From positions 1,907-65,906 of IMG/VR virus record IMGVR_UViG_3300006734_000007: 64,000 nucleotides of DNA; one strand, given 5' to 3'. This document shows, piece after piece, positions 5,305-30,900 of this stretch. Position 1 is the stretch's first letter; each line of letters begins with the position of its first letter. This DNA comes from a virus. Its lineage: Duplodnaviria; Caudoviricetes. The position numbers and the translations under genes were made by a program. The notes under the pieces are model-generated. The model was not told the origin of the DNA. It saw only the letters and a list, made by a program, of their open reading frames with translations, and ran no database searches.

Positions 5305-5744
5305 AAATACTATCATTAGATATTGCATCAACAACAGGCTGGTGTTTAGAAAAAGATATTTATGGTACTTGGGACTTTAAAACAAGAAGAGATGAATCAA
5401 TGGGAATGAAACTTATTAGATTTAGAGCTAAATTAAGAGAGATTCATCAGCTGGAAAATATAGATGTTATGATCTATGAAAGACCAGCAGGAAGACACGC
5501 ATCTTCTGTCATACATCAATCAAAACTTATTGCAGTAATGGAAGAGTTTTGTGAAGAAAACAGTATAGATTATAGATCTTATTCTGCTACTGAAATCAAA
5601 AAATTTGCAACAGGTAAAGGTAATGCTGGTAAACCAGCTATGATCCAAGCAGCAAAATTTACTTATGGTTATACTGGAAATGATGATAATGAAGCAGATG
5701 CTATTCATATGTGGCATTTATTTAAAAAAGAAATGAATTTATAA
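5301..5744 (+). CDS. RuvC-like Holliday junction resolvase
   Basis: ILSLDIAS-TGW, YERP, IKKFATGKGNAGK, DDNEADAI. Confidence 0.88.
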   Translation: MKILSLDIASTTGWCLEKDIYGTWDFKTRRDESMGMKLIRFRAKLREIHQLENIDVMIYERPAGRHASSVIHQSKLIAVMEEFCEENSIDYRSYSATEIKKFATGKGNAGKPAMIQAAKFTYGYTGNDDNEADAIHMWHLFKKEMNL

Positions 5745-7520: not shown

Positions 7521-7546
7521 TTAACCTAAATTAAATTAATTTAAAA

Positions 7547-8734: not shown

Positions 8735-8737
8735 TTC

Positions 8738-11991: not shown

Positions 11992-11997
11992 TTCTAT

Positions 11998-12585: not shown

Positions 12586-12594
12586 CTATTTTTG
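12564..12594 (+). promoter_or_regulatory. Bacteroidota-type promoter
   Basis: TTTG at 12564-12567, 19-bp spacer, TATTTTTG at 12587-12594: exact consensus, 17 nt before the ATG at 12612. Confidence 0.7.
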
Positions 12595-12611
12595 TTGAAA
12601 ACAATATTATT

Positions 12612-13049
12612 ATGCCAACAAAAAAATTAATTGAACCAAGTATGATTTTAATATCATCAAATTGGGGTCCTACAGAAAGTTTTAAAATGATTCCGGCATC
12701 TAAAGAATGTCCTTATGTAGAATGTATTTATAATCCAACAGGTAAAGTATTAGCTGTAATTGGTACTATTAGTAAAGAAGCTTTTCACACAGTACCAAGA
12801 CTAAATGAAGATGGAGATCCGCAAAAACGCAAATTTCCAACTGAACAACAACCTCATAAAACTCAAAGAATTATGCAGGAAACATTTAGTGAATATTACA
12901 TTTTTGGAAAAGATGAAGTAGAAGCATTTATTAAAATGTTTGCTATTAATGCAGAAAGTTTTGATTATTCAAAATATACTGACATGAAAACTATGGATTC
13001 ACCAAACGCAAGTGGAATTGAAACACCACCACTTATTATTGAACCATAA
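12612..13049 (+). CDS. hypothetical protein
   Basis: 145-aa ORF with its own promoter and terminator. Confidence 0.75.
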   Translation: MPTKKLIEPSMILISSNWGPTESFKMIPASKECPYVECIYNPTGKVLAVIGTISKEAFHTVPRLNEDGDPQKRKFPTEQQPHKTQRIMQETFSEYYIFGKDEVEAFIKMFAINAESFDYSKYTDMKTMDSPNASGIETPPLIIEP

Positions 13050-13068
13050 TTTAACTAACCAGATATCT

Positions 13069-13102
13069 AAAGGAGAGTGATTTATATTGCTCTCCTTTTT
13101 TT
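13069..13102 (+). terminator. intrinsic terminator
   Basis: AAAGGAGAGTGAT...ATTGCTCTCCTTT stem ending in a T7 run. Confidence 0.8.
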
Positions 13103-13118
13103 GGCTAAAAATTAATGT

Positions 13119-15137
13119 ATGAAACAACATTGGGTAATGGACTATGAAACAATGAAAGATTGTTTTGTAGCTGTATTTGAAAATTATAACACTGCAGAAC
13201 AACATATTTTTGTTGTATCAAAAATCGCAAATAACTATCTTGGTTTTAATGATTTTATTGAATTCCTAAATAAGAATATTGAAAACCAAGAAAGACACAT
13301 TTCTTACAATGGTTTAGGATTTGATGCCCAAGTTACAGAATCTATTCTTGAAAATGCTTTTAACTGGTCCGGATATTCAAATGAAAAAATTGCCGCAAAG
13401 ATATATGAAATAGCTCAAACTGTTATATCACTATCTAATGCTGGAGAATTTTTACCATTTTATGAAGGTAAAATGCGCATTCCACAACTTGATGTATTTA
13501 AATTAAATCACTGGGATAATGCTGCAAAAAGATCAAGCTTAAAATGGATTCAATTTATGATTGATTGGCATAATCTTGAAGATATGCCTATGGAACACTA
13601 TGAAGAAGTTAATACAATAGAAGAATTAGATATGATTGTAAACTATTGTATTAATGATGTTAAATCAACTAAACAAATATTACGTTTATGTAAAGATCAA
13701 ATTGCTCTAAGAAAACAATTAACAGATACATATAATCTTAATTTGATGAGTGCATCTGAACCTAAAATTTCAAAAGAACTATTCTTATATTATCTTACTC
13801 AAGATGGTAAACATAGAAAGAATGACATTAAGTATTCTAAAACAAAGCGTAATGAAATTATAGTTAAAGATCTTATTCTACCTTATATAGAATTTGAACA
13901 TCCTGAATTTGTAAAACTGCATAATAAGTTTAAAGATTTAATTATTGATCCTGAATATACAAAAGGAGCTTTTAAAGAATCTATAAATTATAATGGAGTT
14001 ATTACAGATTTTGGTTTAGGTGGTTTACACGGTGCTAGACAAAGTGGAGTTTATGAATCTGATGAAGAAATGATTATTGTTTCTTCTGATGTAGTAAGTT
14101 TCTATCCTAATATGGCAATTAGAAATGAATGGGCGCCAGCTCATTTACCTAAAACAAAATTTTGTAATCAGTATGAATGGTTTTTTAATGAAAGAAAAAA
14201 GATTCCTAAATCAAATCCTATTAATTATGTATTTAAGATTATACTAAATAGTACATACGGTTTATCTAATGATAAGTATTCATATTTCTATGATCCACAG
14301 ATGACAATGCAAATTACAGTGAATGGCCAATTAAGTCTAATGTTATTGTATGAAATGATTGTACAAAATATTCCAGGGTCAATTCCACTAATGCAGAATA
14401 CTGATGGTTTAGAAACTATGATTCCTCGTAAGTATAAAGATCAATATTTTAAAATATGTAAGCAATGGGAAGAAAAAACAAAATTAAAATTAGAACATGA
14501 TTATTATCAAAAATTAATTATTGCAGATGTAAATACATATATAGCAGTACATGATTATAAAGAAATCGATGATAAAGATTATTGGAAAATTAAAAATGAA
14601 AATCCACATTACTTATATAAACAAGAAAATGGAAAATCATATTATGCACCAACTAAATGCAAAGGTCGGTTTGCTTGGGAATCATTTACTAAATATGATG
14701 TATCAACATTACATAAGAATAAAAGTTCATTAATAGTTTCTAAAGCTATTTATAACTTTTTTGTACATAATATTAGTCCTGAAAAAACTTTAGCAGAAAA
14801 TAGAAATATATATGACTATTGTAATGCTGTACGTATAAAAGGAACATGGAAATTTACTAAAGTTTTTGTTGAAAATAGTGAATACAAAGAAGAAGATCTT
14901 TCTAAAACAGTAAGATATTATATAAGTAAGAAGGGTTGTAAAATCCTTAAAAAGCATAAATCAGATGGTCGAATTACACAAGTAGAAGCCGGCAAATGGT
15001 TATGTACTTTATTTAATAAATATGAAAAGAAAGATTGGAAAGACTATAATATCGATGAAACTTATTATTTAAAAGCTATCTACAAAGAGATAGATAATAT
15101 AGCTCAAAGTAGATTTAAACAACTTTATTTATTTTAA
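13119..15137 (+). CDS. polB: family B DNA polymerase with 3'-5' exonuclease
   Basis: ExoI DYE, ExoII YNGLGFD, ExoIII YCINDV, motif A DVVSFYPN, motif B KIILNSTYG, motif C NTDG. Confidence 0.95.
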   Translation: MKQHWVMDYETMKDCFVAVFENYNTAEQHIFVVSKIANNYLGFNDFIEFLNKNIENQERHISYNGLGFDAQVTESILENAFNWSGYSNEKIAAKIYEIAQTVISLSNAGEFLPFYEGKMRIPQLDVFKLNHWDNAAKRSSLKWIQFMIDWHNLEDMPMEHYEEVNTIEELDMIVNYCINDVKSTKQILRLCKDQIALRKQLTDTYNLNLMSASEPKISKELFLYYLTQDGKHRKNDIKYSKTKRNEIIVKDLILPYIEFEHPEFVKLHNKFKDLIIDPEYTKGAFKESINYNGVITDFGLGGLHGARQSGVYESDEEMIIVSSDVVSFYPNMAIRNEWAPAHLPKTKFCNQYEWFFNERKKIPKSNPINYVFKIILNSTYGLSNDKYSYFYDPQMTMQITVNGQLSLMLLYEMIVQNIPGSIPLMQNTDGLETMIPRKYKDQYFKICKQWEEKTKLKLEHDYYQKLIIADVNTYIAVHDYKEIDDKDYWKIKNENPHYLYKQENGKSYYAPTKCKGRFAWESFTKYDVSTLHKNKSSLIVSKAIYNFFVHNISPEKTLAENRNIYDYCNAVRIKGTWKFTKVFVENSEYKEEDLSKTVRYYISKKGCKILKKHKSDGRITQVEAGKWLCTLFNKYEKKDWKDYNIDETYYLKAIYKEIDNIAQSRFKQLYLF

Positions 15138-15138
15138 T

Positions 15139-16626
15139 ATGCCAAAGAAAATTATCAATACAACAGAAAATGATCTTAGAAATGTAACACTTCCATCACA
15201 TGGTGGAAAATATGGAGTTATCTCACATGGTTACATAATGGATAAGGTCGAAGAAGAATTACAAAAGAAAGGTCTATCTATAAAAGATCAATCATTTAGA
15301 GCTACTCATAATGGTGAAGTAGCTCAAGGTGTTTATTATCTGAATTATGGAAATGATTCAGAAATCTCATTAATGTTTGCATGGGGTAACTCATATGATA
15401 AAACACAAAGATTTAAATGCGCAGTAGGTGCCTATGTATTTGTTTGCGGAAATGGAATGCTAGTAGGTGACATGTGTAATTATGGTCGTAAACATTTAGG
15501 CACAGCTAAAGATGATGTTACTGAAACTATAGAACAACAAATTGCTTCAGTACAATCATATTTTAATAAGCTTGTATCTGATAAAGATACAATGAAAAAT
15601 ATTGTACTAACTGATACTGAGATTCATGATCTTATAGGTAGACTTTATCTTAAAGATGAAGTTATTACAGTAACACAATTAGTTAATCTAAAAGATGAAT
15701 TAGAAGATCCATCTTATAACTATGGTGTTGCTTATAATACATTGTGGCATGTATATAATTGTGTGACACATGTATTAAAAGAATCACATCCTCGTACTTG
15801 GTTGGAAGATCAAAAAGAACTTCACGCAATTATTAAATCCATGTTCTTCCCTAAGACTCCATTTGTTAATCCTAATCAGTTAGATCTAGCAGTAGAAGCT
15901 GAAAAAGCTGAAGCAGTTATGGAAAATGATGAACCGGAACTTACTGAAGAAGAAAAAGAAGAAAGACGTTTGATGATGGAAGCTTATCAAGATGACATTG
16001 CAAATGGCGAGTATCCATATGTTGATGAAGATGGAACAGAAATTATAGATGAAATTCCTGCAACAAATGCTGATGTAACAACAACTGAAGACAATGATCT
16101 TAGTGAACTAACTAGTAACACAGAATCAGATATTCTTGTTTTAGATGATTTTGTAGAATTAGATGAACCAGAAGAACTAATCAATGAAATAGAAGAAGAT
16201 GCTACAGAAGAACCTGCTGAAAGTGGAGAAGAACCTGAGCCTGAACTTGAAACTGATGAGACTGGTCTACTAATTCTATCATCTGATGATGAAGAACCAA
16301 ATTTAGACTCTGATGTTGTTACAGATGAAGTTATAATTGATGATGAAGAATTGGATGAAACTGATGATGATCTTGAGAAAGAAATAGATGATGCAATTTC
16401 TGCAGATCTTGAAATGCAAGAAATTAAAACTGAATCTATAATTCAAGAAAGAGAAAATGAAGACATCTCTTTAGATCAAGAATCTCAAATTACACCAATT
16501 CCTAATCTAGATGAACCTGTTCAAATTATGTCTCCTGAAGAAGCAAAGGAAAAGTCAGAAATAGATTTTTCTTTAGATAATAATTCAGAAACAAATGATG
16601 AACTGGAGTCGCCATTTGATTTCTGA
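15139..16626 (+). CDS. DUF932-family protein with long acidic C-terminal extension
   Basis: NSYDKT, VFVCGNGM, RKHLG, TLWHVYNCVT; the last ~240 aa are D/E-rich. Confidence 0.8.
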   Translation: MPKKIINTTENDLRNVTLPSHGGKYGVISHGYIMDKVEEELQKKGLSIKDQSFRATHNGEVAQGVYYLNYGNDSEISLMFAWGNSYDKTQRFKCAVGAYVFVCGNGMLVGDMCNYGRKHLGTAKDDVTETIEQQIASVQSYFNKLVSDKDTMKNIVLTDTEIHDLIGRLYLKDEVITVTQLVNLKDELEDPSYNYGVAYNTLWHVYNCVTHVLKESHPRTWLEDQKELHAIIKSMFFPKTPFVNPNQLDLAVEAEKAEAVMENDEPELTEEEKEERRLMMEAYQDDIANGEYPYVDEDGTEIIDEIPATNADVTTTEDNDLSELTSNTESDILVLDDFVELDEPEELINEIEEDATEEPAESGEEPEPELETDETGLLILSSDDEEPNLDSDVVTDEVIIDDEELDETDDDLEKEIDDAISADLEMQEIKTESIIQERENEDISLDQESQITPIPNLDEPVQIMSPEEAKEKSEIDFSLDNNSETNDELESPFDF

Positions 16627-17237: not shown

Positions 17238-20200
17238 TTACCTATTTATTGCACCCCAAAGATCACGAGTTGCTTGTTCTGGATCAAATAATTTATCTGC
17301 TTTAAATCCTACAATTTTATATAAAACTCTTTCTCCTTTCCAAGCACCTGCTTGTCTATAAGTTGTATATCCAGAATCTCTTTTATAAAAAGCTTTTTCT
17401 GACCCCATTAAACCTCCAGCTGTAAGAGAAACTACATTAGATAAATTTTCTACTGCTTGTGAAGAAATACTTAAATCTTTAAACATTCTTATCCATTCTC
17501 TAGGATTTTGAAAAAATCTATTTTCTACATCTGTATTAAGAGCTACTAACAAAGCTTGATTTTGCAACCATCCTCCAAAATTATAATCTTTATTTGCATC
17601 GTCAATTGTCCAAGGTCCTGGCATAGCACTACTTCTTTCTCTTATTTTTTTCCATTTATCTGGATCTTCTGGATCCCAATCAATTCCAAAAATAGTAAGC
17701 CACATCCATAACCATAGTTTTGCTTTTATAGGATCTGATATAGTTCTTCCTACTGCAAACCAATCTTCTTTAGTTGGTTTATATTGTGGATGTTCTTTAG
17801 ATATAAGTCTATGAATCATTCTAGAGCTTCTAGCCCAATACCCCATTTCAAATCTTTGCAAAGCAGGATTCCAATGTTCTTCTAAATTCTTAAAATCAAA
17901 TCTTTTTGTTTTAAAAATTCCAGATTTTTGCATTCTTCGATCAGCATAAAATCTTCTCATTAACATTTTAGGAAAGAATCTACGCATTGAAAAAATAGGC
18001 CTTGCTAATACATATTGAGATATTGCGCCTTGTTCTGCAGCTGCATAAGCTCCTTGATTAAAGTTTTGATATTCGTGTATAGCATTCTTAATCCTGTTAA
18101 ATTCAGAACCTCCTGGTGCATATTTTTTATCTATACCACTTTTAAGTTTAATATCATTTGTTTTAGGATCAATTTCCCAAGCATCAATATAATTAAGTAC
18201 TTCAACTTGATCTCCTACTTTTCTGTCTACTTTTACAGTATGCATTGCAGCAGAAAAGAATTCCATACTAGCTAAAAGTTCTAACCATTTTCTTTGAGAA
18301 GTTGTCCAACTTAATGAATAAATATCTTTAAATATATCTCGCGTTACATTATCAGAAAATTTTTCATTAAATCTACCTTGAGCAAAATCAAATAAATCTG
18401 TTAATTGAATATTTATATGATTTGGATCTCTAGTATAAACTTCTTGACTAATCAAACGCATAGTATTTAAAGCCCATGCTTCTCCTGCAAGCGCACCTTT
18501 ATAAGTAACAAGTCCAGAATTATTAAATAATGCTTCTTGTCTTAATTGAAATTGTGCACCAAAATAGTTTTTAAATCCTGACACAGGATCTAATGAAAAG
18601 AATGAATGACTAGCAGATTTTAAAATACTATTTATTAGTTTATCTGTCATGGCCCATCCTTTAGAATCTTTTTTAACTCTTCTTCCCTCCCAATTTATTT
18701 CATATAAAGCATTTACAATAGCTTGTCTATTAGACTTACCAAACTTTTTTCTATCATCATCAGTATAACCTAATGCCATTAATTGATTTGTAGTATACTT
18801 TTTTCTAAGATCATTTATCTTAGTCTCATCAAAATTATTAATAAGATCTTTTATAGCATCTGCTATAGGACTTGTATCTTTTAAAGCCTTATGTTCTAAT
18901 ATTCCTAATCTAAATTTTAATAGTGATCCAATAATATCCATAGATGTCTCATTAACATCCATTTTATATATACCACCAATTGGAATATTATTTCTTTCAA
19001 AGTTTAAATTATGTTCAGCTACTGTAAATTTAAAAGCATTATCATAATTTAAATTATCTTCAAAATCTTCTGGATTGGGTCTAAAATTATCTAAGAAGTT
19101 TTCTTTCCATCTATCAAACTTATTAAATAGTCTATTTGATTCTTTTTCTTTAGTTACTGCAATCTCATAATTGCTTGGTCTATATCTAGCTAGCTCATGC
19201 ATTAATCTTTGCGAAGGTTCATCTATATCTTCTTGCCATTTTAAATTATACTTTTTAATTATTTCTAATAACTCAAAGAATGCTTTGTCTTCTTTATTAG
19301 TAGAATTTTTTAACTTATAATAATCTTGATTGATAAACATGTTGTAAGGCATGTCTTCTGTAAACTGATCTGGATCTTTTTGATACTTAGCTTCCATTGC
19401 CTCTAAACTTTTAGGCATAAAGAAACCTCTATTATCAATATGCTCTCCAACTTTAAGTTCTATTTCTCCAGTATTTGGATCATATCCAGTCCAAAATTCA
19501 GGTTTAACTTCTCTGCGCCAAAATTGTTTTCCAGGTTGACCTATAATAGTAATATCTTTTTCAGAATACTCATCATAAATTTTAGTAGACTCATAATCTT
19601 TTGGATCAGAAGGTCTAACTATATTCCATGCGTCAATCCTTGCATACATTCTTTGAGGTGCACTACCTTTTTGATAAACTGTTGTTTCATAATGACTTGA
19701 TTCAAACCACTCTTTAAACTCTTCATCCATTTCTAAAAACTGATCTATAAATGCTGGATCTAAAAAGTCTTCTTCTTGTACTGATGTCGCAATTTTCTTA
19801 CCTTCTAAAGTTTGAATTAACACTGGTCTAATTAATCTTTGATACCAGTTTTCTGCAATTTCTGTATAATATTTAGTAGGAAGTCTTTCCTGCATATCAT
19901 CTAGTTCTTGCAAAGCTTTAAATAACTTGTTCTTTTGTATCTTGCTGATACCAAGTTTATCTGATTTAGTTTTTAAAAAATCATAATCTTCTTGTTCAAA
20001 TTCAGTTAGCCCCACTAACTTTCCATTAAAATCTCTTTCTTTCTTTTTTCTTCTGCGTAGAATATCCCAATACTCTTGCATTCTTTCCATCTCTTCACCA
20101 GTAAGACCCATTAAATTCATTACTGCTGCTTTAGAAGATTCTTTTAATTCATGAAGTCTTTTAATCTCAGCAAGCTGTTCTTCTGTCATATCATCACCTT

Positions 20201-23200
20201 TAGGGTGACCATCATCATCACGTCTTCCTGTTAAATTTTTATTGATTTCTTTTACTATTAATGCAAGCTCATTAGAAGTTTCAAATTCAGAAGCCAAAGT
20301 AGGATCTTCAGCTAAAACATCTGCTCTTTGTTTTGCAAGATCTTCAAATACTTGTTGAATAACCTGTAAGATTCTAGCTCTATCTGTATACCAAGATTCT
20401 TTAGGTATCTGTCTTGTATTAAGATCTACCCACATTTGCATTCTTTCATTAAGCTCTTCATAAAACTCTTCAGGTTTTGCTTTTTGATCAAATCCTTCTT
20501 CTGTCATTTCTAAAATAACTTTAGATTTTACAGAATTATAAGCTGTTGCAAATGCTCCCGGTATAGGGTTGTATTCGTAATAGTTTTTATTTTTTTCTCT
20601 ATTTTCTACAAGCACTTCTGCAATGGCCATATTAAGATCATCTTTGTCTCTACCAAAGTCATCTTTAAAACTAAAGAGCTTACTATACTCATTCCATAGC
20701 GCATCTATTCTTTCATAGTTTTGATGTGTTTTAAATGGATCTGGTAATGCTGGAGTTAATTGAGCAATCTCATCTAAAATTTCTTGAGTTTTTTCATAAG
20801 CCATTAATCCTACATTCTCAATCTTACCATTTACTTCTCTTGTAACATCCATTAACTCTTTCTGAAGATCATAAATCTCATCTACATATTTTCTATTAAA
20901 AAATAAAGAAGTTATTTGTTCTTTTTTCTTAATAGCATCTAAATATGCTTTTTCAGTATCTGGATTTTTTGTTGCGTACCAAGCTTCTTTAGCTTTCTTT
21001 TCTTCTATTTGAAGTTTAAGTATATAAGCTTTTGCTCCAATATGAGGATTTAATAAAGTTCTTGCTTCATAATCTTCATAATTACCATATTCATTAACAT
21101 ATCCTATATTATCATTAAATAATAATTTATCTGCAAGAGTTTGATAACGTGCACCATTAATTCCTAATTCTTTTAAATAAGGATTTATTTCTTGCATAAA
21201 TTCATTTTTATCTTTAAGAGCTTGCGAATGAATAGTATTTCGTGCATTTTTTAAAGTTGCAGCTAAAGTTCCTACAATAGGATCTGATTGACCAATAAAG
21301 TTTGTAACCCATCTATCAAATATACCATTAACGTCTTCTGTTAAAGCTCCAGCTAATAATAACTTAACCTTATCTGGGTTTACAATTCTACGATCTCTAA
21401 GTTGTTTTTCTCTTTTTATTGCTTCTTCATAATACTTTGCATTTTCAGGATTTTCTTTTATCCTTTCTTCATATTCTTTTTTTCTTTTTTCATATTGCTC
21501 ATTAGCCATTTGATTCATTGGCTCCATAAAATCTGCTACATAATCTCCTACATATTCAGCATTGATCTGCTGTATAACAGATTTCATATCTTTAATATTA
21601 TTTTGAGCAGTAAATAATATTTGAATAGTAGGATTAGTATTTGATATTGTTTCATTTGCAAATGCAGACTTTAAATCTTCAATAGCTTGATCAATATACT
21701 CAGACCAAAACTGTTGAAACTTCTTATACTCCATTACTTTAGTTATAGTAGATGCAGTATCAGGATTTTTAGCCAACAGTTTAAGATGTTTTAATGACTG
21801 ATCAGTTAACTCACGTAATTGTAATAAAGTATCTAAAAGAGCTTTTGTTTTTGCTCTAAAAATTTCAAGCTCGCTTTTTGTAATCTTACCATCATCTTGT
21901 GCTCTTACAAGTTTAGAACTTGTCCAAGGTCTAATACTAATAGCCATTTCATGTAAATAATTTCTATTATGAGGATTAGCCATTGGAGCAATAATTTGTT
22001 CATAAAGCTCTGGATCAGATTTTTTTAATGAGTTTAAAAAATTTAATTGTTTTTGTATTGCATTGTAATGTTTATCAATTGATTCTTGCAATTTGATTTT
22101 ATCATTACGATAAGCTTTTGTAATAGTATCTGCATACTGAGCAAGATCATCACTATAAGCAACAATATCTTCCATGCCTACACTAGTAACCGGAGCATCA
22201 AACTTATTTCCTTTTTTTAGCATGAATGCTAATTCTTCTATAGTAGTCTTTGGTGATAATTTACTTACATCTGTTTTAAAGATCTTTCTTAATAACTGTT
22301 TAATATAAAACCAAATCTTTTTAATAAATCTATTGAACTCAGGAGTAAGCTGTGCATCATCCATGAAATATTTTTCATTTAGAACTCTTACCATTGCTTC
22401 TTCCAAAACTATATCTGAAATATCACCTTTAGGAATTTCTAAAGCGGCCCATTCCATGTCAACAGGATTATTAGGATTTCTACCTTCTTCCTGCTCAATC
22501 ATTATTTCTTCTACAAGATCTCTTCCTTCTTTTGTACTAAGAAGTTCCTGCACTAAATTATTATATAGATCCGAATTGTTTTCTTTAATTGATCTAATTA
22601 AAGGGTGAGATATTTCGTGCACTGCTGTTTTTGCAGTTATATTATTATCAACAAAATAAATTTGATCATTAAAATAAAATGCTGCTTGTCCTGACCAAGG
22701 ATTTTCAGAATACTTAGTCATTTCTGTTGCTTGTTCAGCAGTAATAAAGTTTTCATCTGTAATATCTCTACCTACTTGAGAAACTAAGGCCTTAACTTGA
22801 TTTAAACTTAACAGTCTGTTTTTCTTATCTAATATATCACTAGCTTGTTCAGGATTAACTCCTTTAGAAAATTTAGATTTAGAATTTAATATTTGAACTC
22901 CTTCATTTTTAGAAGACTTTTTAATCATTGCTTGAAGATCTGCAGCTATAGGTTCAAAAGTCATCAATCTAAAACCTTTATTTTTAAATAGATATTTAGT
23001 ACCTTCTGTAACATAAGGTATAAATAGTATATGGTCATTCATGTCTTTAGCACGGCCCATTTTAATTTTAGCTTCATAAATCTGTTTCCAGCTATAATAA
23101 GTGTCGTCAAATCTTTGAGGATAATTTCCAGGTTTAGTTCTTAAAAAAAGATCTAATACATATCTTTTTTTTCTTGGTAATCCTGTATCCTTATCAACTT

Positions 23201-24956
23201 CCATTTCTGTAGGATGCTCTATATAACCCGTTATAGTTACATAATCTTGAGTTTTCTTTGCATTACCCATGAAAGCATTTTCATAAACAAAATCCGGAAA
23301 TACTTCTTTAACTTTTTGATACCAGCTTTGTTTATTTAAAAGTTTTTCAAACTCTTTAGCAAACTTAGGCCCTTTTCTTTTGTTTTCTAATTTAAGACCC
23401 GGCCCTTCAAGAAAATCTAAAATCTCTTGTTTGTTTTCTTCAGCTTCAAAAACTTCTAAAGGAATAATACCATCAATATCATGTAAAGATTCTGACATGG
23501 ATCTTAATAAAAATCCATATCGTCTAATTACTTGAGATCCACTTAACTTGTAAAGGCTTTGCAATTGCTTACCTTTCTCTTCAGTAAATCCAAAACCTTC
23601 TAATCCAAATAAAGTAGCAATAATTTGTGCAGCAAAAGGATCAGATTCTAAAGTTTCTTCATAGAATTTTTGTTCTAATCTTTCCCCTTGTACATTATAA
23701 AACTCACCATTTATATTAAAAGCTTGCTGCATTATCTTACTATAATCTTTCTTATATACATCATCAGCAATACTATTTGCTATATCATAAAGATCTTGTT
23801 GAGAAACTTTAGCAAAAGGTATATTGCCTAATAACCCTTGCATAATGATCTTATTATAAAACCAGTTCCATATTTTCTTAAAAATATTTTTTACAAATCT
23901 TGGTGATTCTTTCCAACCAAATCTTTCAAAATAATCTTTATTAATGGTTTCATTTTTAATTTTAGGTCCTTTGTACTCTGTTTGATAACCATACTCTAAA
24001 GCTTCAGCTATAAAATGATATATTACTTGTTTATGAGCCCAATAATTAAAAGGTTTATCTTTAAATATAAGATTCTTTATAGTTTTTTTAGCACTACTCC
24101 AAATTAAGTTATTTGCAATTGGACCTACTTCATATACTTGTAAAGCAAGTCTTACAAGTTCTCCTTCTTTTTCATATTCAACACCAAGATCTTCTGCATC
24201 ACCTATAGGATTTTTATCATCTCTAAACTTATCAAATTCTTTACTGTTATAGTAATCATATAGTGTTTGATAAGCATCCCACTTATCTATATTTTTAAAT
24301 ATATCTATACTTAGTTTTGTTTTTTTACCAAGCATTTCATATACTATGGCTGCAACTTGTAATGTAAATCTTCCAGTATCTATAGTGCTATGCAAACCTA
24401 GATACTTATTAATCATATCAAATGCAGCAATAGGATTATTATCATCATATAGATTGTCTAATATGTTATCTGCATTTTCATTAACATCAATATTTAAACC
24501 TTTTAGAAAATCAATTAGAGCTCCTCTTAGTTTTTCATTATATTCTGCATGTTTTTGCGCACCTAAACTAAGCTCTTCATTCATTTTGTTTACAGAATCT
24601 ATACCTTTGGATTCTAAACCCATTGCATAATTCTGCATAAACTTTAACATAGGATCACTATAAACAGGCTCATAATTTTCATCAAGCTCAATCTGTACAG
24701 TATATGCTAATTCATTATTTATTCTTGGTTCTAATTTTTTAATTTTACCTTCAGATAAAGCAACAAAATCTCCCCATGATTTTCTAAATTCAGATGTATA
24801 AAACCGGGCATATTGTCTTAATGCTCTTTCATCTGTTATACCAGGATGAGCTTCTTTAATACTATTAAATAAATTAGAACGCTTTCCATTAGGCGCTGTT
24901 ACATATTCAATTTGATTAGTTGTCTGATTTCTTACTACTTGACAATTTAAAGCCAT
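17238..24956 (-). CDS. giant virion-associated/ejected polyvalent protein (2572 aa), RNAP-cluster partner
   Basis: Next to the RNAP gene; zincin HEISH at ~22605-22619, NTase-like segment, long helical body, hydrophobic C-terminal segments. Confidence 0.75.
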   Translation of the reverse strand: MALNCQVVRNQTTNQIEYVTAPNGKRSNLFNSIKEAHPGITDERALRQYARFYTSEFRKSWGDFVALSEGKIKKLEPRINNELAYTVQIELDENYEPVYSDPMLKFMQNYAMGLESKGIDSVNKMNEELSLGAQKHAEYNEKLRGALIDFLKGLNIDVNENADNILDNLYDDNNPIAAFDMINKYLGLHSTIDTGRFTLQVAAIVYEMLGKKTKLSIDIFKNIDKWDAYQTLYDYYNSKEFDKFRDDKNPIGDAEDLGVEYEKEGELVRLALQVYEVGPIANNLIWSSAKKTIKNLIFKDKPFNYWAHKQVIYHFIAEALEYGYQTEYKGPKIKNETINKDYFERFGWKESPRFVKNIFKKIWNWFYNKIIMQGLLGNIPFAKVSQQDLYDIANSIADDVYKKDYSKIMQQAFNINGEFYNVQGERLEQKFYEETLESDPFAAQIIATLFGLEGFGFTEEKGKQLQSLYKLSGSQVIRRYGFLLRSMSESLHDIDGIIPLEVFEAEENKQEILDFLEGPGLKLENKRKGPKFAKEFEKLLNKQSWYQKVKEVFPDFVYENAFMGNAKKTQDYVTITGYIEHPTEMEVDKDTGLPRKKRYVLDLFLRTKPGNYPQRFDDTYYSWKQIYEAKIKMGRAKDMNDHILFIPYVTEGTKYLFKNKGFRLMTFEPIAADLQAMIKKSSKNEGVQILNSKSKFSKGVNPEQASDILDKKNRLLSLNQVKALVSQVGRDITDENFITAEQATEMTKYSENPWSGQAAFYFNDQIYFVDNNITAKTAVHEISHPLIRSIKENNSDLYNNLVQELLSTKEGRDLVEEIMIEQEEGRNPNNPVDMEWAALEIPKGDISDIVLEEAMVRVLNEKYFMDDAQLTPEFNRFIKKIWFYIKQLLRKIFKTDVSKLSPKTTIEELAFMLKKGNKFDAPVTSVGMEDIVAYSDDLAQYADTITKAYRNDKIKLQESIDKHYNAIQKQLNFLNSLKKSDPELYEQIIAPMANPHNRNYLHEMAISIRPWTSSKLVRAQDDGKITKSELEIFRAKTKALLDTLLQLRELTDQSLKHLKLLAKNPDTASTITKVMEYKKFQQFWSEYIDQAIEDLKSAFANETISNTNPTIQILFTAQNNIKDMKSVIQQINAEYVGDYVADFMEPMNQMANEQYEKRKKEYEERIKENPENAKYYEEAIKREKQLRDRRIVNPDKVKLLLAGALTEDVNGIFDRWVTNFIGQSDPIVGTLAATLKNARNTIHSQALKDKNEFMQEINPYLKELGINGARYQTLADKLLFNDNIGYVNEYGNYEDYEARTLLNPHIGAKAYILKLQIEEKKAKEAWYATKNPDTEKAYLDAIKKKEQITSLFFNRKYVDEIYDLQKELMDVTREVNGKIENVGLMAYEKTQEILDEIAQLTPALPDPFKTHQNYERIDALWNEYSKLFSFKDDFGRDKDDLNMAIAEVLVENREKNKNYYEYNPIPGAFATAYNSVKSKVILEMTEEGFDQKAKPEEFYEELNERMQMWVDLNTRQIPKESWYTDRARILQVIQQVFEDLAKQRADVLAEDPTLASEFETSNELALIVKEINKNLTGRRDDDGHPKGDDMTEEQLAEIKRLHELKESSKAAVMNLMGLTGEEMERMQEYWDILRRRKKKERDFNGKLVGLTEFEQEDYDFLKTKSDKLGISKIQKNKLFKALQELDDMQERLPTKYYTEIAENWYQRLIRPVLIQTLEGKKIATSVQEEDFLDPAFIDQFLEMDEEFKEWFESSHYETTVYQKGSAPQRMYARIDAWNIVRPSDPKDYESTKIYDEYSEKDITIIGQPGKQFWRREVKPEFWTGYDPNTGEIELKVGEHIDNRGFFMPKSLEAMEAKYQKDPDQFTEDMPYNMFINQDYYKLKNSTNKEDKAFFELLEIIKKYNLKWQEDIDEPSQRLMHELARYRPSNYEIAVTKEKESNRLFNKFDRWKENFLDNFRPNPEDFEDNLNYDNAFKFTVAEHNLNFERNNIPIGGIYKMDVNETSMDIIGSLLKFRLGILEHKALKDTSPIADAIKDLINNFDETKINDLRKKYTTNQLMALGYTDDDRKKFGKSNRQAIVNALYEINWEGRRVKKDSKGWAMTDKLINSILKSASHSFFSLDPVSGFKNYFGAQFQLRQEALFNNSGLVTYKGALAGEAWALNTMRLISQEVYTRDPNHINIQLTDLFDFAQGRFNEKFSDNVTRDIFKDIYSLSWTTSQRKWLELLASMEFFSAAMHTVKVDRKVGDQVEVLNYIDAWEIDPKTNDIKLKSGIDKKYAPGGSEFNRIKNAIHEYQNFNQGAYAAAEQGAISQYVLARPIFSMRRFFPKMLMRRFYADRRMQKSGIFKTKRFDFKNLEEHWNPALQRFEMGYWARSSRMIHRLISKEHPQYKPTKEDWFAVGRTISDPIKAKLWLWMWLTIFGIDWDPEDPDKWKKIRERSSAMPGPWTIDDANKDYNFGGWLQNQALLVALNTDVENRFFQNPREWIRMFKDLSISSQAVENLSNVVSLTAGGLMGSEKAFYKRDSGYTTYRQAGAWKGERVLYKIVGFKADKLFDPEQATRDLWGAINR

Positions 24957-24960: not shown

Positions 24961-27900
24961 TTAACATTTATCTATTTGTTCAAGAACACTATCAATTTCA
25001 TTTTCCATATTTACTGCCCATTGTTTATCTGAAAAATCTTGATAAACTTCAATTAAATCACTTAAGCTAATATACTGAGAATTAGGATTAACATAAATAA
25101 AACTGTCAAATAATTGAGTAGACAATTCATCAAATAAATTAGAAACTAAAAATTGACCTGAGTCATTTATTCTAGATGCATTTAGATGATCCATTGCGTA
25201 TCCTACACTTAAAAATACTATTGGCTGTTTATCATTTATTTTAATTAATTCAGTTATAGATTTACTAATAACATCTTTAATTACATCCTGTTGACCTATT
25301 AATAAATCTCCTTTAGCATTATAAACCGGCAAAACATGTACATTATTAACACCTTCTATTGTATTTCCATTTTGATCCATTGCTAAACCAGTAATTGTTC
25401 CTGGTAATACAAATACTTTGGAAGGATTGTTTTCAATAATTTGTTTAAGATTAGTAGTGTCTGACATATTTAGAATCTCTGCATCGTAAGAATCTTCAAG
25501 TGCAGTAAACAACGTGTCTACTTTTAAACTATCTACATCTATTCTAGATTCTTCTCCTGTATGGAATACTTCAAACCCGGCACCAATTTCTAATAGATAT
25601 TCTATAAACTGAGTATCTACTCCTGGCATATCACCTACAACAAATCTTGCACCACTTTCATTTGCCTCAGCAATTTGAGATCTTGTTTCTTCAGATAATG
25701 GTGTATTTTTTAATTTACCATTTCTTGCTAGCATTACTATATCTCCAAATGACTTTTGACCATTAATTCTTTCAAAACTTACTCCCGTGTAAACACCATT
25801 TTTATTTTTAATAGTATCTTTTTCATCACCAGTTTGCTCTAATGAAGTTTTAGAACTTGAATTTCTATTTAAAACATTTAATTCTACAATAGCCGCGTCA
25901 GATTTTAATCTCATGGCTTGATCTTTTTCATCACCCCATTTAGTTCCTTTACCTGTATCAGCAGCTTTTACATTAATATCTGCATCTGACCACTTATTAC
26001 TATAACCTCCTTCATATTTAAACTGATCTTGATCAATTATAGACTGCCAATCTCTTACATCATCTGTAATAAAATCTAAATTTCTATTTCTAAAATTAGC
26101 ATTATTGATTTTGTTATGTTGCCTAAATTGATTTTGAAAATCCATAAGTACTGCTAAACCTATTGGACTATCAATTTCTTTAGCTAATTTATCTGTAGAT
26201 TTTTTTAAGAATGGCAATAAGTTTTCTTTAGGCATTACTCTACCAAGAGCAAATCTATTATCTATATTCATACCTGATTGCAAGAAAGCATATATAGGAA
26301 GCATTTCAAAGAACTTAGATATTTCACGATTTTCTTGAATTCCTTGAGGACTATCATCTAATACTTTCATTACATTTGGATCAGCTAATTCTCTAAATTC
26401 AGTAATAGCTGCATCAATTTCATTATTCTCTAACTTAGTATTTCTAAATTTAATATTGTGATACTTTACATTATTTTTAGAATCTGACTCATACTGAATA
26501 GATTCTAAAATAGCATAAGTATCTAACAGATTTGGATGGTTATTTATAATTTCTTTTACACGGTGCATAACAGAGTTATCACTATTAAACAGCTGGTGCA
26601 TGTTTAGAATATTATAAAGAGCTGTATCTTTTAACCATTCTTCATATACTTGACGTACTTGTCTTTTCTTTTTAGCATCAATACTCTCATCAGTTCTAGA
26701 ATCAATATCCTTAATACGATCATATCTTTTTGTAAACTCATTAGTCTTAATAAATTCAGCTAAAGGATTATTTAATCTTAATAATTCTCTTTCTATTGTA
26801 AACTTAACAAACTGATTATAACCTCTTGTATTTCTTTTAAATGTATTAGAATCTAATTCAGCTAATTGCAAAGTTTGATAATTTATATCTTCTAATATTT
26901 TTTCTGCTACTGCTGTTTTATCTTTATCTAATTTTATTTTTTTAGTTTTATCTGTAAAATTTTCTATACGACTTAATAAAACATTCAAAGGTTGTTGATC
27001 AATACTTTGAGCAAATGCTAAAGATTGGAATTGTTTTTTAAGAACATCTTTATCAATTAAGATCTCACCTGAATCTGGATTTACAATTACTCCGCGATTA
27101 GTTCTAGCATCTTTTAATAAATTTGAACTAATATTAACTTCATATCCTTTATATCCTTCTTTAATGTCTGTATCTAATACATCTTTTTGAAGAGCATATA
27201 CAACTAGATCATTTAAAAATTTATTTGCAAATCTTTCTTCAGTACCAAATTCAGATTTAATTTTAGATAGATTTTTTATATTTCCTGTTATACCAAGAAT
27301 ATATTTTAAAATTTTCTCAGATGTTCTTAATGGAAATACATTTTTCCAAAGATCTAATTGAAAACGTTGAATATCAAATGAACCAATTGGTGATTCATTT
27401 AAAATAGCATCTATAATATATGAAGGAAATACAGTATTTGTATATAAGTCTTCTTGCTTTTCAATTCTTTTAGCTGCCTCGTATAATGTTACAGATTTAG
27501 TTGTATCATAGTTTAAAGTAGTTTTTAATTTTTTGTAATCTTGTCCTATTTCTTCTATTTCTAAATAATGCAAAAATAAATCTCTTGCATCCATCATTGC
27601 TGCATTACTACTTGTAGGATCTGTTTTAACAACTTTATCCAAAGTTTTTGCATCTATAGATTTACCTTTAAGTTTTTTCTTTAATCTATTATTCATATCA
27701 TGAATTATAGACATATCTCGATTCTTAACAGCTTGAGTACTATTAATTACATTATAATCTAGAAGCATTTCTTTTCTAATTTGTGTTCTAAGATTCATGT
27801 AATCAATTTCTTTAGATTTATCAGTTTTAAGTCTGTTTTTATTATTTGCTTTAGAAAGAGCACTTTGAGCTTTTCTTAATCTTTGTCTATACTCTTCAAC

Positions 27901-30900
27901 AAGCGGATTTGAAACAAAGTCTACTGCAAGTTTTACAGGAACACCCATTTCTATTAAGAATAATAAAGTAGGCGCAATAACTTTATTACCATTAACATCA
28001 AAAATCCACCAATCTTTAGATACATCTACCCAACCATCAATAAGCATACTTAAGTTTCTACCAATTGATTCTTCGCCAAAAGCATCATATAAATGAGATA
28101 ATGAAACTACATCATACTCTTTATACTTAAGAGTATTATGAGGTAAGAATATATTTATTTCTCTTGCTTTATTAATATCTCCTTCATATAATTCTAGCAT
28201 AAATGCAAGATTATCTAATTTATCTTTAACAAGTTTAGATCTGCTTTCTGGATCAGGATATTGATTTTCTAAATCATCAATTTGTGCTTGAATTTTACCT
28301 GTTTGCATTTCCTCTTTAGCTATTTCATAAGCTTCTAGAGATACATTATAAATAGGATTTAAATGTGCACCTACACGATCTAAAATAGTATTGAATGCAT
28401 TTTCTACTGCACCTATTCCAAGTACTGCTTTACCTTCTGAGTTAACATCATGAATATGCATGTTATAAGTAGGTGAAATTGTAGAAGATCTACTAGGTTT
28501 AGATAATTTTTTTCTTTTACCGTTTTCATTTCTTTGATAAGAAAGCATAGAATTATAAGCACCTGGTCTATCTTCTTTCTTTTCTCTCATTTCAGCTGCC
28601 AACATTTTCATTGGATCAGCATTATTTGGAGTTAATAACGTATGATACTTAAGAGGATTTGAAAGCATTGTCCAAAGTCCAATCATTAATTCATTTTCAA
28701 TTGCTTTAACAGACTTACCTTTTAATTCAAGTTCTAATTTTCTTAGTTTATTATTTAAAGGTTCTAAAGCTTTATCACGTTTTTCTATGATCTTTTGGTA
28801 CTCAGGATTATTTTTAACTTCATCTGAATTTTTAATTTCTTTTTCTAAAAATTCAATTTGAGATGATAAAGTTGTAATTTCTTCTCTAAGTTGATCTAAT
28901 TTAATTGGATCAATAGGTACAAGACCTTGCTTAAATCCTTCTTCATACATATCAACTTTATCACTCATTTCATCTCTCTTATCACGTAAAGGTTGAATTG
29001 TACTATTACCAATAGCTTTATATACTTTAGCTATTCTGTTACCAAACTTTTGATGAGTCTTTTTAACTTTTTTCTTAACGCTTTTAATATCATCTTTAAT
29101 TTCATATTCATCTCTAACAGATTTAGAATTAAGTACCATAGTAGGTTTGCCATGCATCAAAGAAATGTTAGCCATTAATAATGTAAGTTTATCAATATCA
29201 AAGTCACCACCAGACTTAGCTACTAATTCAGATGGAGCAATTAATATATTACCTTCAGAATGTGGTAAAAACTGTTTAACATGGAAGAATTCCATTGAGT
29301 TATCTTCCTGAACTGGAATACGTACACCTACTAATGTAATAAGCATTAGATTCTCTTTTAGAGATCTCCATTCTGGGTCATTGATTAATTCATTTAATCT
29401 AACCAATGATTCTTTTTCTAAAATATTACCATCTTCATCTTTAACATATACAGGATCTCCATCCATATGAGTTAGATACAATAGATTATAATAATCTCCT
29501 TGCATTGCAATTTTAGCATCTGCTCCTATAGTTCGTTCATTATTAGCAACCTCATATCTAGTAAAATTGGTTTTCTTTCTTTCTGTATATGCTTTAGCTT
29601 GCAACTTGGCATCTTCCATAGAGTCAACCAAGATTATATCTGCTTGTTCACCTGTACCATCTATAATTGTATTATGAGCATAATATTCTCCATATATCAT
29701 TATAGAATCTTTGTACATTTTACCTTTAACTCTTTCACCATCTTTAGTATCTAGAGTTATATCATCTTTATTAATGTGTTTATGTTCTCCGGTTCTAGGA
29801 TCTTTTACATAAATGTATTTATGATCACCATCAATACTTCTTACAATTACATCAGCAGTCTTTTCTAAATCCCCTTGAGTAGTAATTGTTCCTTCGAATT
29901 CTCTAGCTGCTTGATAATACTCAAGATCATTAGTTCCATGTTTAGCTTTCTGTTCATCAGTCGGCTTACTTGGTTCAAATAAAGTTGTAGCAAGCTGAAT
30001 CAACATTTCACCATTTGGTCTTTGTCTTACAAGTGTATTGTTTATAAGAGCAGTTAAAGACTTTTCAATAACTGGTGTAACAGGTGAAATAGAAATGTCA
30101 TAAAGAAGGCCATCCCCTTTAGAGTTAACATCAATCATATCTAGATCTGTTGTAGGAAGCCCTGCATTCTTAAGTTCTCTCTTAAGTAAATCCACTAATG
30201 ATTTAATTTTATTTATTTCACGCGTACCATTTTTAATATCTTCTTCTGTCCAACCTGTAGACTTTACAAGGACTTTTTTCTTTCTGTCAATTAATTCTTG
30301 GATGTTATTCTCGTACTGAATAATCTCTGTATAAGCTTGAGACTTTGCAAGTTTTTCAACTTCTTCTAGTTTATCCCATTCAGTTTTTCTTTTTGCAGGA
30401 TCAACGTCAGGCATAAAATCAACAGGTACACCTGCTTCCATATAACCTTTTTCTACAAGCTTTCTCATCTGAGAAGACATCGTATTCTTACGCTTAAACT
30501 TACTAGCTACATCTAACTGATTCTTAAGATATTCTAAATGTATAGTATTTGCTTTATAGTATTCAGTAGCCGGATCATTTAAATCTAAAATAGGTGCTTC
30601 ATCTATTGTACGCACACCTTTTCCAAAATCTTCTTCATTATAAAGTATACTAGCTTTTTTAGTATTCTTATCTACAACTGTAGAAATTTTACTTCCTGAT
30701 AAATGCAAAGCAATAGCAATCTGCTGTTTAACCATATTGTTATGAAGTATCTCAGCATTAGTATTTTCTATTACATTAGGTACTAATGGTGCAACTGAAT
30801 ATTTATGAAAAGCATGTGCCGGCAATCCCATCATTTTTGCAAGAGGTCCCCAGTACTGGAATTTTTTTGAAGGGAAGAACTGAACATATTGATTAGCATA

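Follow-up and report, generated by a model that had tools for sequence, protein, structure and literature searches.

The locus considered here is a giant gene in a 64,000-nt stretch of viral DNA (IMG/VR record IMGVR_UViG_3300006734_000007), which we refer to as the window. The gene starts 4 nt past the stop codon of an upstream 4836-aa open reading frame (ORF), and its 2572-aa product, P0001, has full-length homologues of 2079-2883 aa (n = 21). All four nucleotidyltransferase (NTase) motifs discussed below are encoded on the minus strand within residues 469-641 of this single ORF, and the plus-strand translation of 23030-23555 is riddled with stop codons. The motifs fall in a conserved module made up of a helical/beta accessory part (residues 340-422) and the predicted NTase core, followed directly by a region with an HExxH motif:

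17238..24956, minus strand: 2572-aa ORF (P0001), a giant multi-domain phage protein with an ATG start
22911..23939, minus strand: conserved module, residues 340-682 (alignment A1, 19 sequences, 55% mean column identity)
22932..23690, minus strand: predicted nucleotidyltransferase core, residues 423-675 (AF2 model and Foldseek comparison with the PDB)
23535..23546, minus strand: motif I, L471-S472-G473-S474 (h-[ST]-G-S), running in the model from the end of a short strand (470-471) into the start of helix 473-480
23502..23504, minus strand: invariant R485 between motifs I and II (131/131 copies)
23472..23483, minus strand: motif II, H492-D493-I494-D495 (HDxD), on strand 493-498 of the AF2 model
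23139..23156, minus strand: L601-D602-L-F604-L-R606, in which D602 is the putative third carboxylate for metal binding (long strand 594-606)
23034..23069, minus strand: K630-I-K-M-G-R635-A-K637-D638-M-N-D641, a motif III-like K...R that runs straight into a '+DxxD' pentad (helices 623-633 and 636-644)
22206..22769, minus strand: H780-E781-x-x-H784-P plus invariant E853, a putative metallopeptidase of the gluzincin type immediately C-terminal to the NTase

Residues 401-650 are the best-conserved part of P0001, at 0.33-0.55 compared with ~0.1-0.25 elsewhere in the protein across 20 full-length homologues. An HMM search of 1.84 billion representative sequences recovered 157 relatives of the domain, the distant ones mostly matched only from profile position ~85 on; the family is found in 41 viral contigs and 157 protein clusters. 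Within the domain, YKLSGSQVIRRYG begins at residue 469 of P0001 (window 23552-23514), SLHDIDGII at residue 490 (23489-23463), YVLDLFLR at residue 599 (23162-23139) and GRAKDMND at residue 634 (23057-23034), with a distance of 18 residues between GS and DxD (S474 to D493). Conservation was counted over 131 domain copies that cover at least 195 of the 239 core columns, drawn from 144 segments examined. The GS and DxD residues that a preliminary description of this DNA had singled out (G473, S474, D493 and D495) are kept in every copy, as are R485, H492, R635, K637 and D638; K630 and D641 are kept in 130 copies and D602 in 128, the three exceptions, which may be misaligned, reading P at that position. 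The 'third Asp' and the RxKDxxD string of that description, being kept in 128 to 131 of the 131 copies, are thus invariant positions of the family. In the more diverse alignment A2 (45 sequences, 26% mean column identity; core numbering +422), the sole invariant columns are G473, S474, R485, H492, D493, D495, D602, F604, K630, R635, K637, D638 and D641. Given 157 relatives and such near-total conservation of the motif residues in an alignment of this divergence, the motifs of the 2572-aa protein, judged by sequence comparison, are not the product of chance.

The same counts bear on whether the fold might be inactive, that is, a scaffold within a virion protein, with the motifs kept for folding or binding only. 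The activity is a predicted one and the domain goes unrecognized by sequence models, which leaves some room for this explanation, but 128-131 of the 131 copies retain each canonical catalytic position, even though the remaining domain has drifted to 26% identity, and pseudo-enzymes normally lose catalytic residues. We therefore regard an inactive fold as highly improbable and residues 423-675 as, very probably, an active NTase, a prediction drawn from the motifs and the structural model.

Sequence models are silent on this domain. Searches of Pfam, PHROGs, PDB sequences and 50,697 phage records gave no usable match to the whole of P0001, and a PDB profile search returned a single chance match for A1 (Hbl B, E 0.37) and none for A2. 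No model of the Pfam NTP_transf clan matched above the cut-off in the 19- and 45-member sets; the sub-threshold matches, all with E >0.01 and scattered among unrelated noise, were to NTP_transf_2 in 1 of 19 (E 0.012) and 1 of 45 members (E 0.013), to Polbeta (PF18765) in 1 of 19 (E 0.047), and to DUF6036 in 1 of 45 (E >0.01). PF08843, the DUF1814 model, matched none of the 19 and none of the 45 members at E up to 10, and a six-frame search of the virus record with this model yielded zero matches, with 3 of 14 control genomes scoring. PADLOC models matched 0 of 45 members, no NCBIfam model fits the domain (one of the 45 members is a marginal match to CBASS_cyclase_a, E 0.043), and no NTase family emerged when 10 family members, either short or distantly related, were scanned with Pfam. 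One of these distant or short proteins, P0163, shows a sub-threshold ParB_N match. With the Pfam, PADLOC, NCBIfam and PDB sequence comparisons all failing to place the domain, we read it as a new, DUF1814-like NTase family and not as a member of PF08843, on the strength of its motifs and model. Among the publications listed by a literature search, none linked DUF1814 with virion or phage-encoded proteins, and we did not find the domain family described in Iyer 2017, whose supplementary architecture files may list it.

The structural evidence comes from an AF2 model of the core, residues 423-675, built from the 45 diverse sequences of A2 (pLDDT 89.9, pTM 0.87); it superseded a first model of residues 340-682 from 19 sequences (pLDDT 67.3), in which the K..KDxxD helices fell below 50. 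The order of motifs in the domain is hG[S], DxD on a strand, an Asp on a later strand and the K..R.KDxxD helix pair, and in the model, a helical insert of ~55 residues separates the DxD strand from the one after it. When the core model was compared with the PDB by Foldseek, as the preliminary description had proposed, Pol-beta-superfamily structures dominated the ranking, headed by JHP933, with MenT4 at rank 11, both DUF1814/AbiEii-type proteins; the top probability was 0.94, and Pol-beta-superfamily enzymes made up 34 of the 38 matches listed, a count inflated by the heavy over-representation of Pol beta and lambda in the PDB. The scores, on the other side, are weak (best E 0.011, so none reaching E 0.001; TM ~0.2-0.36; rmsd 6-8 A), and with TM this low and rmsd this high, it is the ranking and the motifs, not a good superposition, that carry the fold call. 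Motif order, the confident model and the ranking, weak scores notwithstanding, agree with the superfamily assignment made earlier from the motifs. A Foldseek search against BFVD was uninformative, returning mostly unnamed proteins of giant viruses and phages (best E 0.0018), and ESM Atlas features gave a top score of 0.83, to a NERD-containing cluster, below the reliability line of that tool.

Two other readings of the fold draw on the same structural comparison. Pol beta, Pol lambda and TdT account for most of the Foldseek rows, as could be expected of a Pol X/terminal transferase-like, DNA-end or template-independent polymerase that fills in or extends the termini of phage DNA entering the cell, or adds tails to host nucleic acid. 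The row count, however, mostly reflects the abundance of PDB entries, the TM values are 0.18-0.28, Pfam detects no 8-kDa, fingers or thumb domains, and the motif III/IV pair, in the account of Dy 2014, is not a Pol X feature, so this assignment appears very improbable. An enzyme of nucleotide signaling that subverts host signaling, whether of the cGAS/DncV or OAS type or a pyrophosphokinase resembling RelA/SpoT, seems quite improbable as well. OAS1 and small alarmone synthetases do appear in both Foldseek lists, one of 45 members gives the marginal CBASS_cyclase_a match mentioned above, a cpYpsA SLOG domain is present in one remote member of the family, and RelA/SpoT and GGDEF domains are among those reported in polyvalent proteins (Iyer 2017). 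Yet such structures, with E no better than 0.23, rank under the DUF1814 proteins, and the PADLOC collection, CBASS cyclase models included, matched none of the 45 members. Moreover, the hGS...DxD...D set is a signature of nucleotidyl transfer, not of RelA/SpoT.

The domain is almost confined to giant phage proteins, in which it usually sits just upstream of a conserved HExxH...E region. At least 1500 aa is the length of 97 of the 170 domain-bearing proteins, the hosts of the domain span 2000-6000 aa, and stand-alone forms of 109-462 aa are limited to 2 proteins; in some relatives, the domain is encoded by a separate gene of ~580-690 aa. No copy was found by a search of 185,579 prokaryote genomes limited to the A1 pattern, which is not proof of absence; A1 did retrieve loci from viral contigs, whereas a search for related loci with the single protein as query came up empty. 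In P0001, HEISH begins at residue 780 (window 22619-22605), and the H, E, H and later E of the region are invariant in 19 sequences; hHE[FLI][SA]HP is present in 39 BLAST matches, and an HExxH motif lies 20-500 aa downstream of the NTase in 53 of 93 proteins, compared to 0.4 expected from shuffles. The HEISH zincin proposed to stand beside the NTase thus coincides with a conserved HExxH region, although neither a profile search of this region against the PDB (nothing significant) nor Pfam, including its MPTase-PolyVal model, yields a match.

Homologues carry further modules, namely, ART-PolyVal (in P0003) and a PIF1-type helicase, and the presence of the former, a protein-modifying module, fits an alternative in which the domain would modify a host or phage protein with AMP or another NMP, as part of an anti-defense or host-takeover program. 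There are precedents, given that MNT antitoxins adenylylate HEPN toxins, and DUF1814 toxins themselves can be self-modified, with phosphoserine in MenT3 and reported auto-phosphorylation of AbiEii. In Iyer 2017, the Pol-beta NTases found in polyvalent proteins are classed among the protein-modifying domains, with proteins as the proposed NMP acceptors. Nevertheless, we consider this alternative unlikely: the nearest structures belong to DUF1814 proteins that act on tRNA rather than to minimal MNTs; matches to the Pfam models Polbeta and NTP_transf_2 are marginal and confined to 1 of 19 and 1 of 45 members; and the '+DxxD' pentad is described as the DUF1814-specific motif IV (Dy 2014).

The neighbors of the domain-bearing gene are a giant ORF and a DNA polymerase. 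Further along the window, the ORF at 61169-63898 matches gp042 of Cellulophaga phage phi4:1 (Lightbulbvirus), a virion protein identified by MS/MS, and in the window, as in phi4:1, a run of large co-oriented genes follows. The gene for P0001 lies in this block, whose likeness to the virion-protein block of phi4:1 makes it plausible, by analogy, that the protein is packaged in the virion and acts early during infection; virion delivery of the NTase seems, on balance, the better guess. In contrast to the shared block, P0001 and its NTase are without a match in phi4:1 or in any of the 50,697 phage records. The four ORFs at 24961-53333 have no PHROG match, and the 4836-, 2063- and 1702-aa ORFs have no match among PDB sequences. 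For three further giant ORFs, the comparison covered PHROGs. The 2H enzyme that had been suggested as a partner of the NTase was not borne out, Pfam scans of P0001 and the four ORFs at 24961-53333 having detected no 2H phosphoesterase.

Considered as a whole, the evidence gives roughly even odds to the full description of the domain as a Pol-beta-fold NTase of a family so far lacking a model, with the four-motif layout of DUF1814, that would transfer NMP as one module of a polyvalent protein. By analogy with characterized enzymes, D493, D495 and D602 would hold Mg2+, the helices bearing K630, R635 and K637-D638-D641 would hold the NTP, and the NMP would be moved to a hydroxyl of a host macromolecule. 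The first guess for the acceptor, as with the MenT toxins, would be the 3' end of tRNA or another RNA, a tentative assignment by analogy that falls somewhat short of an even chance. Within the giant protein, the NTase would be one module of several, combined with the ~340 N-terminal residues and placed just upstream of the HExxH...E region; it may be freed by cleavage, a possibility raised because relatives encode the domain as a separate gene of ~580-690 aa. A still more specific scenario, which we deem rather doubtful, has a lineage of uncultured phages of ~90-230 kb carrying an AbiEii/MenT type of enzyme, the type that serves bacteria as an abortive-infection toxin, in a particle-borne giant protein that is injected, freed by the metallopeptidase and edits the 3' ends of host tRNA or other RNA. 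The purpose of such an injected toxin might be selective shut-off of host translation or, conceivably, undoing or pre-empting the damage caused by tRNA-targeting host defenses. With regard to tRNA as an acceptor, an enzyme that blocks tRNA at the start of infection would harm the phage, too. The window contains no phage tRNA genes.

AbiEii/MenT-type NTases are bacterial toxins that halt phage infection by disabling tRNAs. The findings described here suggest that uncultured phages carry a kind of enzyme better known from bacterial defense; if the domain has the activity that its conserved residues point to, these phages use the AbiEii/MenT chemistry from their own side of the conflict, and, should the injected-toxin scenario hold, the fold of a defense toxin would serve the phages as a weapon or an antidote. 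An NTase function, if real, would also offer a first clue to what the very large, otherwise unannotated proteins do in this group of uncultured phages, which is widespread. Pfam, NCBIfam, PADLOC and PHROGs (the latter compared with the whole protein only) contain no model of the family, and so it is left without annotation at present; alignments A1 and A2 could seed a family model, and the natural split-gene forms of ~580-690 aa are ready constructs for biochemistry.

Among the known systems, the DUF1814/AbiEii/MenT proteins (PF08843; JHP933, 4O8S; MenT4, 6Y56) appear to be the closest, and, going by motifs and model, the phage NTase is probably DUF1814-like specifically. According to Dy 2014, DUF1814 proteins have a long spacer between motifs I and II (x = 15, compared to the canonical 9-13), a motif II Arg that precedes the Asp by 4 residues (AbiEii R63/D67), and a motif III, KLxAaxxR, with Lys among hydrophobic residues and Arg downstream. 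The phage domain resembles them in its predicted Pol-beta core, a GS-to-DxD spacer beyond the canonical 9-13, an Arg between motifs I and II, and a Lys/Arg motif on a C-terminal helix followed by the +DxxD pentad (here K637-D638-x-x-D641, kept in 130-131 of 131 copies). It differs in the length of the spacer (18 versus 15), the position of the Arg (R485, 8 residues before D493, versus 4), the K-to-R distance (5 residues, in the invariant A-K630-[ILV]-x-M-G-R635, versus 7), the contiguity of motifs III and IV, the invariant His before DxD, the ~55-residue helical insert and the lack of HMM-level similarity. The settings differ as well: DUF1814 proteins are small toxins with an adjoining COG5340/COG4861-type antitoxin gene, whereas the phage domain is a module of 2000-6000-aa proteins. 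MNT antitoxins (NTP_transf_2, PF01909) resemble it in the hG[GS] plus DxD signature and the core fold, but they have no K..R/+DxxD helices, and the phage domain gives only marginal single matches to PF01909. The Pol-beta NTases of polyvalent proteins, as portrayed in Iyer 2017, are minimal four-strand, three-helix domains, mainly from conjugative elements of Firmicutes, and are fused to ArdC-N. In contrast, the phage domain spans ~250 residues with extra helices, occurs in contigs of lytic-type phages and matches PF18765 in the single marginal case given above. Yet the phage domain resembles these NTases (PF18765, NTox45-like) in organization, an NTase being embedded in both cases in a multi-domain protein of a mobile element together with zincin-like peptidase regions. 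Polyvalent proteins unite unrelated catalytic domains, commonly including a zincin-like peptidase, in a single huge chain, and P0001 fits this architecture in combining a predicted NTase and an HExxH...E region in one giant protein.

All the peptide strings on which the preliminary description had based a Pol-beta-like nucleotidyltransferase (NTase) beside a HEISH zincin were located in the translation of P0001, a single 2572-aa ORF (17238..24956) that encloses positions 23030-23555 and starts four bases past the stop of a 4836-aa ORF. The strand is to be given as minus, and the plus strand of 23030-23555 has no open frame. In P0001 numbering, the strings located in the translated ORF are:

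From residue 469, minus strand: YKLSGSQVIRRYG
From residue 490, minus strand: SLHDIDGII
From residue 599, minus strand: YVLDLFLR
From residue 634, minus strand: GRAKDMND
Residue 780, minus strand: HEISH

The combination GS...DxD is by itself weak evidence, and relatives of P0001 were therefore gathered. A word-seeded search with residues 380-760 recovered 21 proteins of 2079-2883 aa with 36-49% identity, and a profile of the module built from 19 of these (alignment A1), when run over 1.84 billion representatives, matched 157 proteins at E<=0.001, 102 at E<=1e-10 and 60 at E<=1e-30. In a second alignment (A2), consisting of 45 diverse core-domain copies cut from relatives, with a mean column identity of 26% and a numbering that is converted to that of P0001 by adding 422, the sole invariant columns are G473, S474, R485, H492, D493, D495, D602, F604, K630, R635, K637, D638 and D641. 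Conservation was counted in the 131 domain segments, out of 144 examined, that span at least 195 of the 239 core columns: G473, S474, R485, H492, D493, D495, R635, K637 and D638 are kept in 131/131 copies, K630 and D641 in 130, and D602 and F604 in 128, the three exceptions at D602 being prolines that may be misaligned. This near-invariance identifies the four motifs originally noticed as the conserved skeleton of an NTase family (128-131 of 131 copies), and residues 401-650 are the best-conserved stretch of P0001 among 20 full-length homologues.

Sequence-level searches did not assign this family to a known one. Whole P0001 had no match in Pfam, PHROGs or the PDB, and the A1 and A2 profiles had no relevant match in the PDB. 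In Pfam scans, NTP_transf_2 was marginal in one of the 19 A1 members (E 0.012) and one of the 45 A2 members (E 0.013), Polbeta in one A1 member (E 0.047), and the DUF6036 'nucleotidyltransferase' in one A2 member (E 0.011), all standing among unrelated matches of equal weakness. PADLOC and NCBIfam gave no meaningful match to the 45 A2 members. PF08843, the model of the AbiEii/MenT toxin family DUF1814, matched none of the 19 A1 and 45 A2 members and nothing in the six-frame translation of the record; of 14 control genomes, 3 gave a score with the same model.

A first AlphaFold2 model (residues 340-682) was mediocre (pLDDT 67.3), and its Foldseek matches were nearly all Pol beta, Pol lambda, OAS1, alarmone synthetase and TdT, at E 0.04-0.2. 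The second, of the core (residues 423-675) with the A2 alignment, was confident (pLDDT 89.9, pTM 0.87, no segment below 50). It opens with a helix and a short strand, at whose end lies S-G473-S474; a further helix leads to a strand with D493-I-D495. After a helical insert of ~55 residues come three long strands, with D602 on the third, and two helices with K630 and K637-D638-D641; in this predicted structure, the order of elements is canonical for the Pol-beta fold. The Foldseek comparison proposed in the preliminary description pointed to the superfamily but gave no close structural match: among the matches listed, 34 of 38 are Pol-beta-superfamily enzymes, a count inflated by the great number of Pol beta and lambda entries in the PDB, the remaining four being two GH11 xylanases and two kinesin entries, and no match reached E 0.001, with TM-scores of 0.2-0.36 and rmsd of 6-8 A. 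Ranks 1-3 are held by JHP933 (4O8S, E 0.011, probability 0.94; also entry 4OK0), while MenT4 (6Y56) comes 11th and TM1012 36th. Motif order, the confident model and the Foldseek ranking together support the assignment of a Pol-beta nucleotidyltransferase fold.

Alignments and model thus show a conserved, confidently predicted domain that retains every catalytic-type residue of a Pol-beta NTase; that it is an inactive scaffold appears most improbable. By family resemblance, the domain would catalyze Mg2+-dependent NMP transfer with an NTP as donor; D493, D495 and D602 would hold the metal, and the K630-D641 helices the nucleotide. Judging from the nearest characterized relatives, the acceptor might be an RNA 3' end, most likely that of tRNA, a reading that we put forward tentatively. 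It encounters the difficulty that an early tRNA block would harm the phage too; the problem would disappear if the activity were selective, transient or of a repair type. The window (1-64000) showed no tRNA or tmRNA genes. Extension of DNA ends is a far less probable activity, although TdT is among the matches of the first model, and synthesis of a nucleotide signal, despite the alarmone synthetase and OAS1 matches, is about equally improbable.

Directly downstream of the NTase, 39 BLAST-aligned relatives carry hHE[FLI][SA]HP, and an HExxH follows the NTase by 20-500 aa in 53 of the 93 proteins with at least 300 aa downstream (0.4 expected from shuffles). In P0001 this region is:

22206-22769, minus strand: HExxH...E region, P0001 residues 730-917, conserved motif in relatives

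In a 19-sequence alignment from viral loci, H780, E781 and H784 (H780-E-x-x-H784-P) and the later E853 are invariant, which we take to be the gluzincin pattern. Because the region has no Pfam match and no PDB profile match, it is called a zincin only by inference. The architecture suggests that the NTase could be cut free of the giant protein around residues 670-725, and the HExxH domain may be what does so.

Seven aligned loci (L014, L029, L030, L032, L038, L040 and L042) have an ORF of its own, 579-1168 aa long, for what corresponds to P0001 ~85-667. For five of the seven, the ORF that comes next could be aligned with residues 686/724-2572; for L040 and L042, no such alignment was found. L034-L037 share the layout of the split loci, judged by layout only, and L028 breaks at an earlier point, ~residue 415, possibly through a frameshift. 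In the split loci, the stop of the NTase ORF and the start of the next are adjacent or overlapping. This is natural gene fission at a domain boundary, and the N-terminal region plus NTase is therefore a self-sufficient unit.

The family is dominated by large proteins: 97 of 170 have at least 1500 aa, and 20 have fewer than 300, many of which are likely contig fragments; a profile search found only two of 109-462 aa. Of the 97 large proteins, 71 have the start of the NTase no later than residue 700, and in 26 it lies deeper, up to residue 4767 of 5115; the NTase is therefore a mobile module. In a distant branch (P0123, P0133, P0135, P0140, P0144, P0148, P0167, P0169 and others), it lies near the C-terminus, at ~residues 1900-2300 of proteins of 2300-2900 aa, and P0118 apparently has two copies (residues 248-512 and 817-1040). 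In P0142, a distant member of 3131 aa, a cpYpsA SLOG domain (residues 1532-1611, E 2.3e-7) lies ~270 residues upstream of the NTase; this module binds or processes nucleotides, and it may point to a role connected with nucleotides in that branch.

The module occurs at 41 distinct loci on IMG/VR contigs of ~25-226 kb, and the two peptide patterns used, which limit the search, found no locus in prokaryote genomes of 185,579 species (one per species), a suggestive pointer to lytic phages. The record of the window is a 65.9-kb viral contig, estimated to be 54% complete. The loci share a conserved gene order, in which the NTase-bearing ORF comes after a giant ORF (3000 aa or more) and before convergent genes of ~400 and ~640 aa, whose counterparts here are a 495-aa ORF and a 672-aa DNA polymerase (phrog_1252, E 1e-128; best phage matches in Vibrio phages, 35% identity). 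The plus-strand half, 1338-16626, is a replication and recombination module:

1338-2324, plus strand: DnaB-like helicase
2865-3548, plus strand: Sak4-like annealing protein
4351-5304, plus strand: primase
5301-5744, plus strand: RuvC-like resolvase
6189-7520, plus strand: HNH-family protein, 443 aa
7547-8734, plus strand: ATPase
10981-11991, plus strand: exonuclease
13119-15137, plus strand: DNA polymerase

The minus-strand block comprises ORFs of 909+, 1702, 898, 1214, 1315, 2063, 4836 and 2572 aa, the first of which provides an indirect link to virions:

61169-63898, minus strand: 909+ aa ORF, open at window end; phrog_37948 'virion structural protein', E 3e-31

Its match in Cellulophaga phage phi4:1 (28% identity across 57% of its length) is gp042, a virion protein by MS/MS; behind gp042 come other large proteins that MS/MS likewise confirmed in the virion. 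Matches were also seen to Flavobacterium phages, a Leptolyngbya phage and a human-gut 'csAssE' phage. Together, these hint at a host of the Bacteroidota type and at a virion module like that of Lightbulbvirus. Against delivery with the virion, P0001 had no match among 50,697 phage records, the four ORFs at 24961-53333 none in PHROGs, and the 4836-, 2063- and 1702-aa ORFs none among PDB sequences. The 4836-aa ORF (24961-39471, minus strand), which had no PHROG or PDB sequence match, contains a clear SAP DNA-binding motif at residues 1038-1069 (E 6.7e-13, passing the cut-off). A sub-threshold signal of a GNAT acetyltransferase comes just before it, at residues 922-984 (E 0.001; 19.7 bits, where the cut-off is 27). 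The 2H phosphoesterase envisaged as a partner was not found in Pfam scans of P0001 and the four ORFs at 24961-53333; the other three giant ORFs were compared with PHROGs. On architecture, delivery of P0001 with the virion seems slightly favored, and the functional scenario of an injected effector is plausible as a hypothesis.

Neither DUF1814 toxins nor polyvalent proteins with NTase modules are new. In the account of Iyer et al. 2017 (PMC5512222), 'polyvalent' proteins of phages and plasmids contain zincin-like peptidases more often than any other domain, these peptidases are proposed to process the polypeptides, and Pol-beta NTases are counted among the protein-modifying domains; transfer to protein, which would agree with that classification, is nevertheless unlikely in our estimate. 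The ART-PolyVal domain in the P0001 homologue P0003 and the PIF1-type helicase in P0011 fit the polyvalent pattern. However, the polyvalent NTase described there is minimal, fused to ArdC-N, mainly Firmicute and related to NTox45, whereas the phage family has a larger domain in a different position, and Pfam Polbeta all but fails to match it.

The closer parallel is with DUF1814, whose motifs, as described by Dy et al. 2014 (PMC3985639), are hG[G/S] and DhD, 15 residues apart as against 9-13 and with an Arg in motif II; a Lys amid hydrophobic residues (KLxAaxxR in COG4849); and a family-specific '+DxxD' pentad. Relative to that description, the phage family has counterparts of all four motifs in the same order, as h[ST]GS, an 18-residue spacer with the invariant R485, HDxD, A-K630-h-x-M-G-R635 and K637-D638-x-x-D641. 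The differences lie in the spacing: 18 residues rather than 15 between motifs I and II, an Arg 8 rather than 4 residues before the first Asp, 5 rather than 7 residues from Lys to Arg in motif III, and motifs III and IV contiguous instead of separate. Judged by sequence, the domain is outside PF08843 as now modelled, and Pfam, NCBIfam and PADLOC, as well as PHROGs by whole-protein comparison, hold no model for the family. In the literature consulted, the supplements of Iyer 2017 aside, there appears to be no description of a DUF1814-like NTase family that is restricted to giant proteins from uncultured phages; its domain probably works like a DUF1814 enzyme, of which it would be a distant relative.
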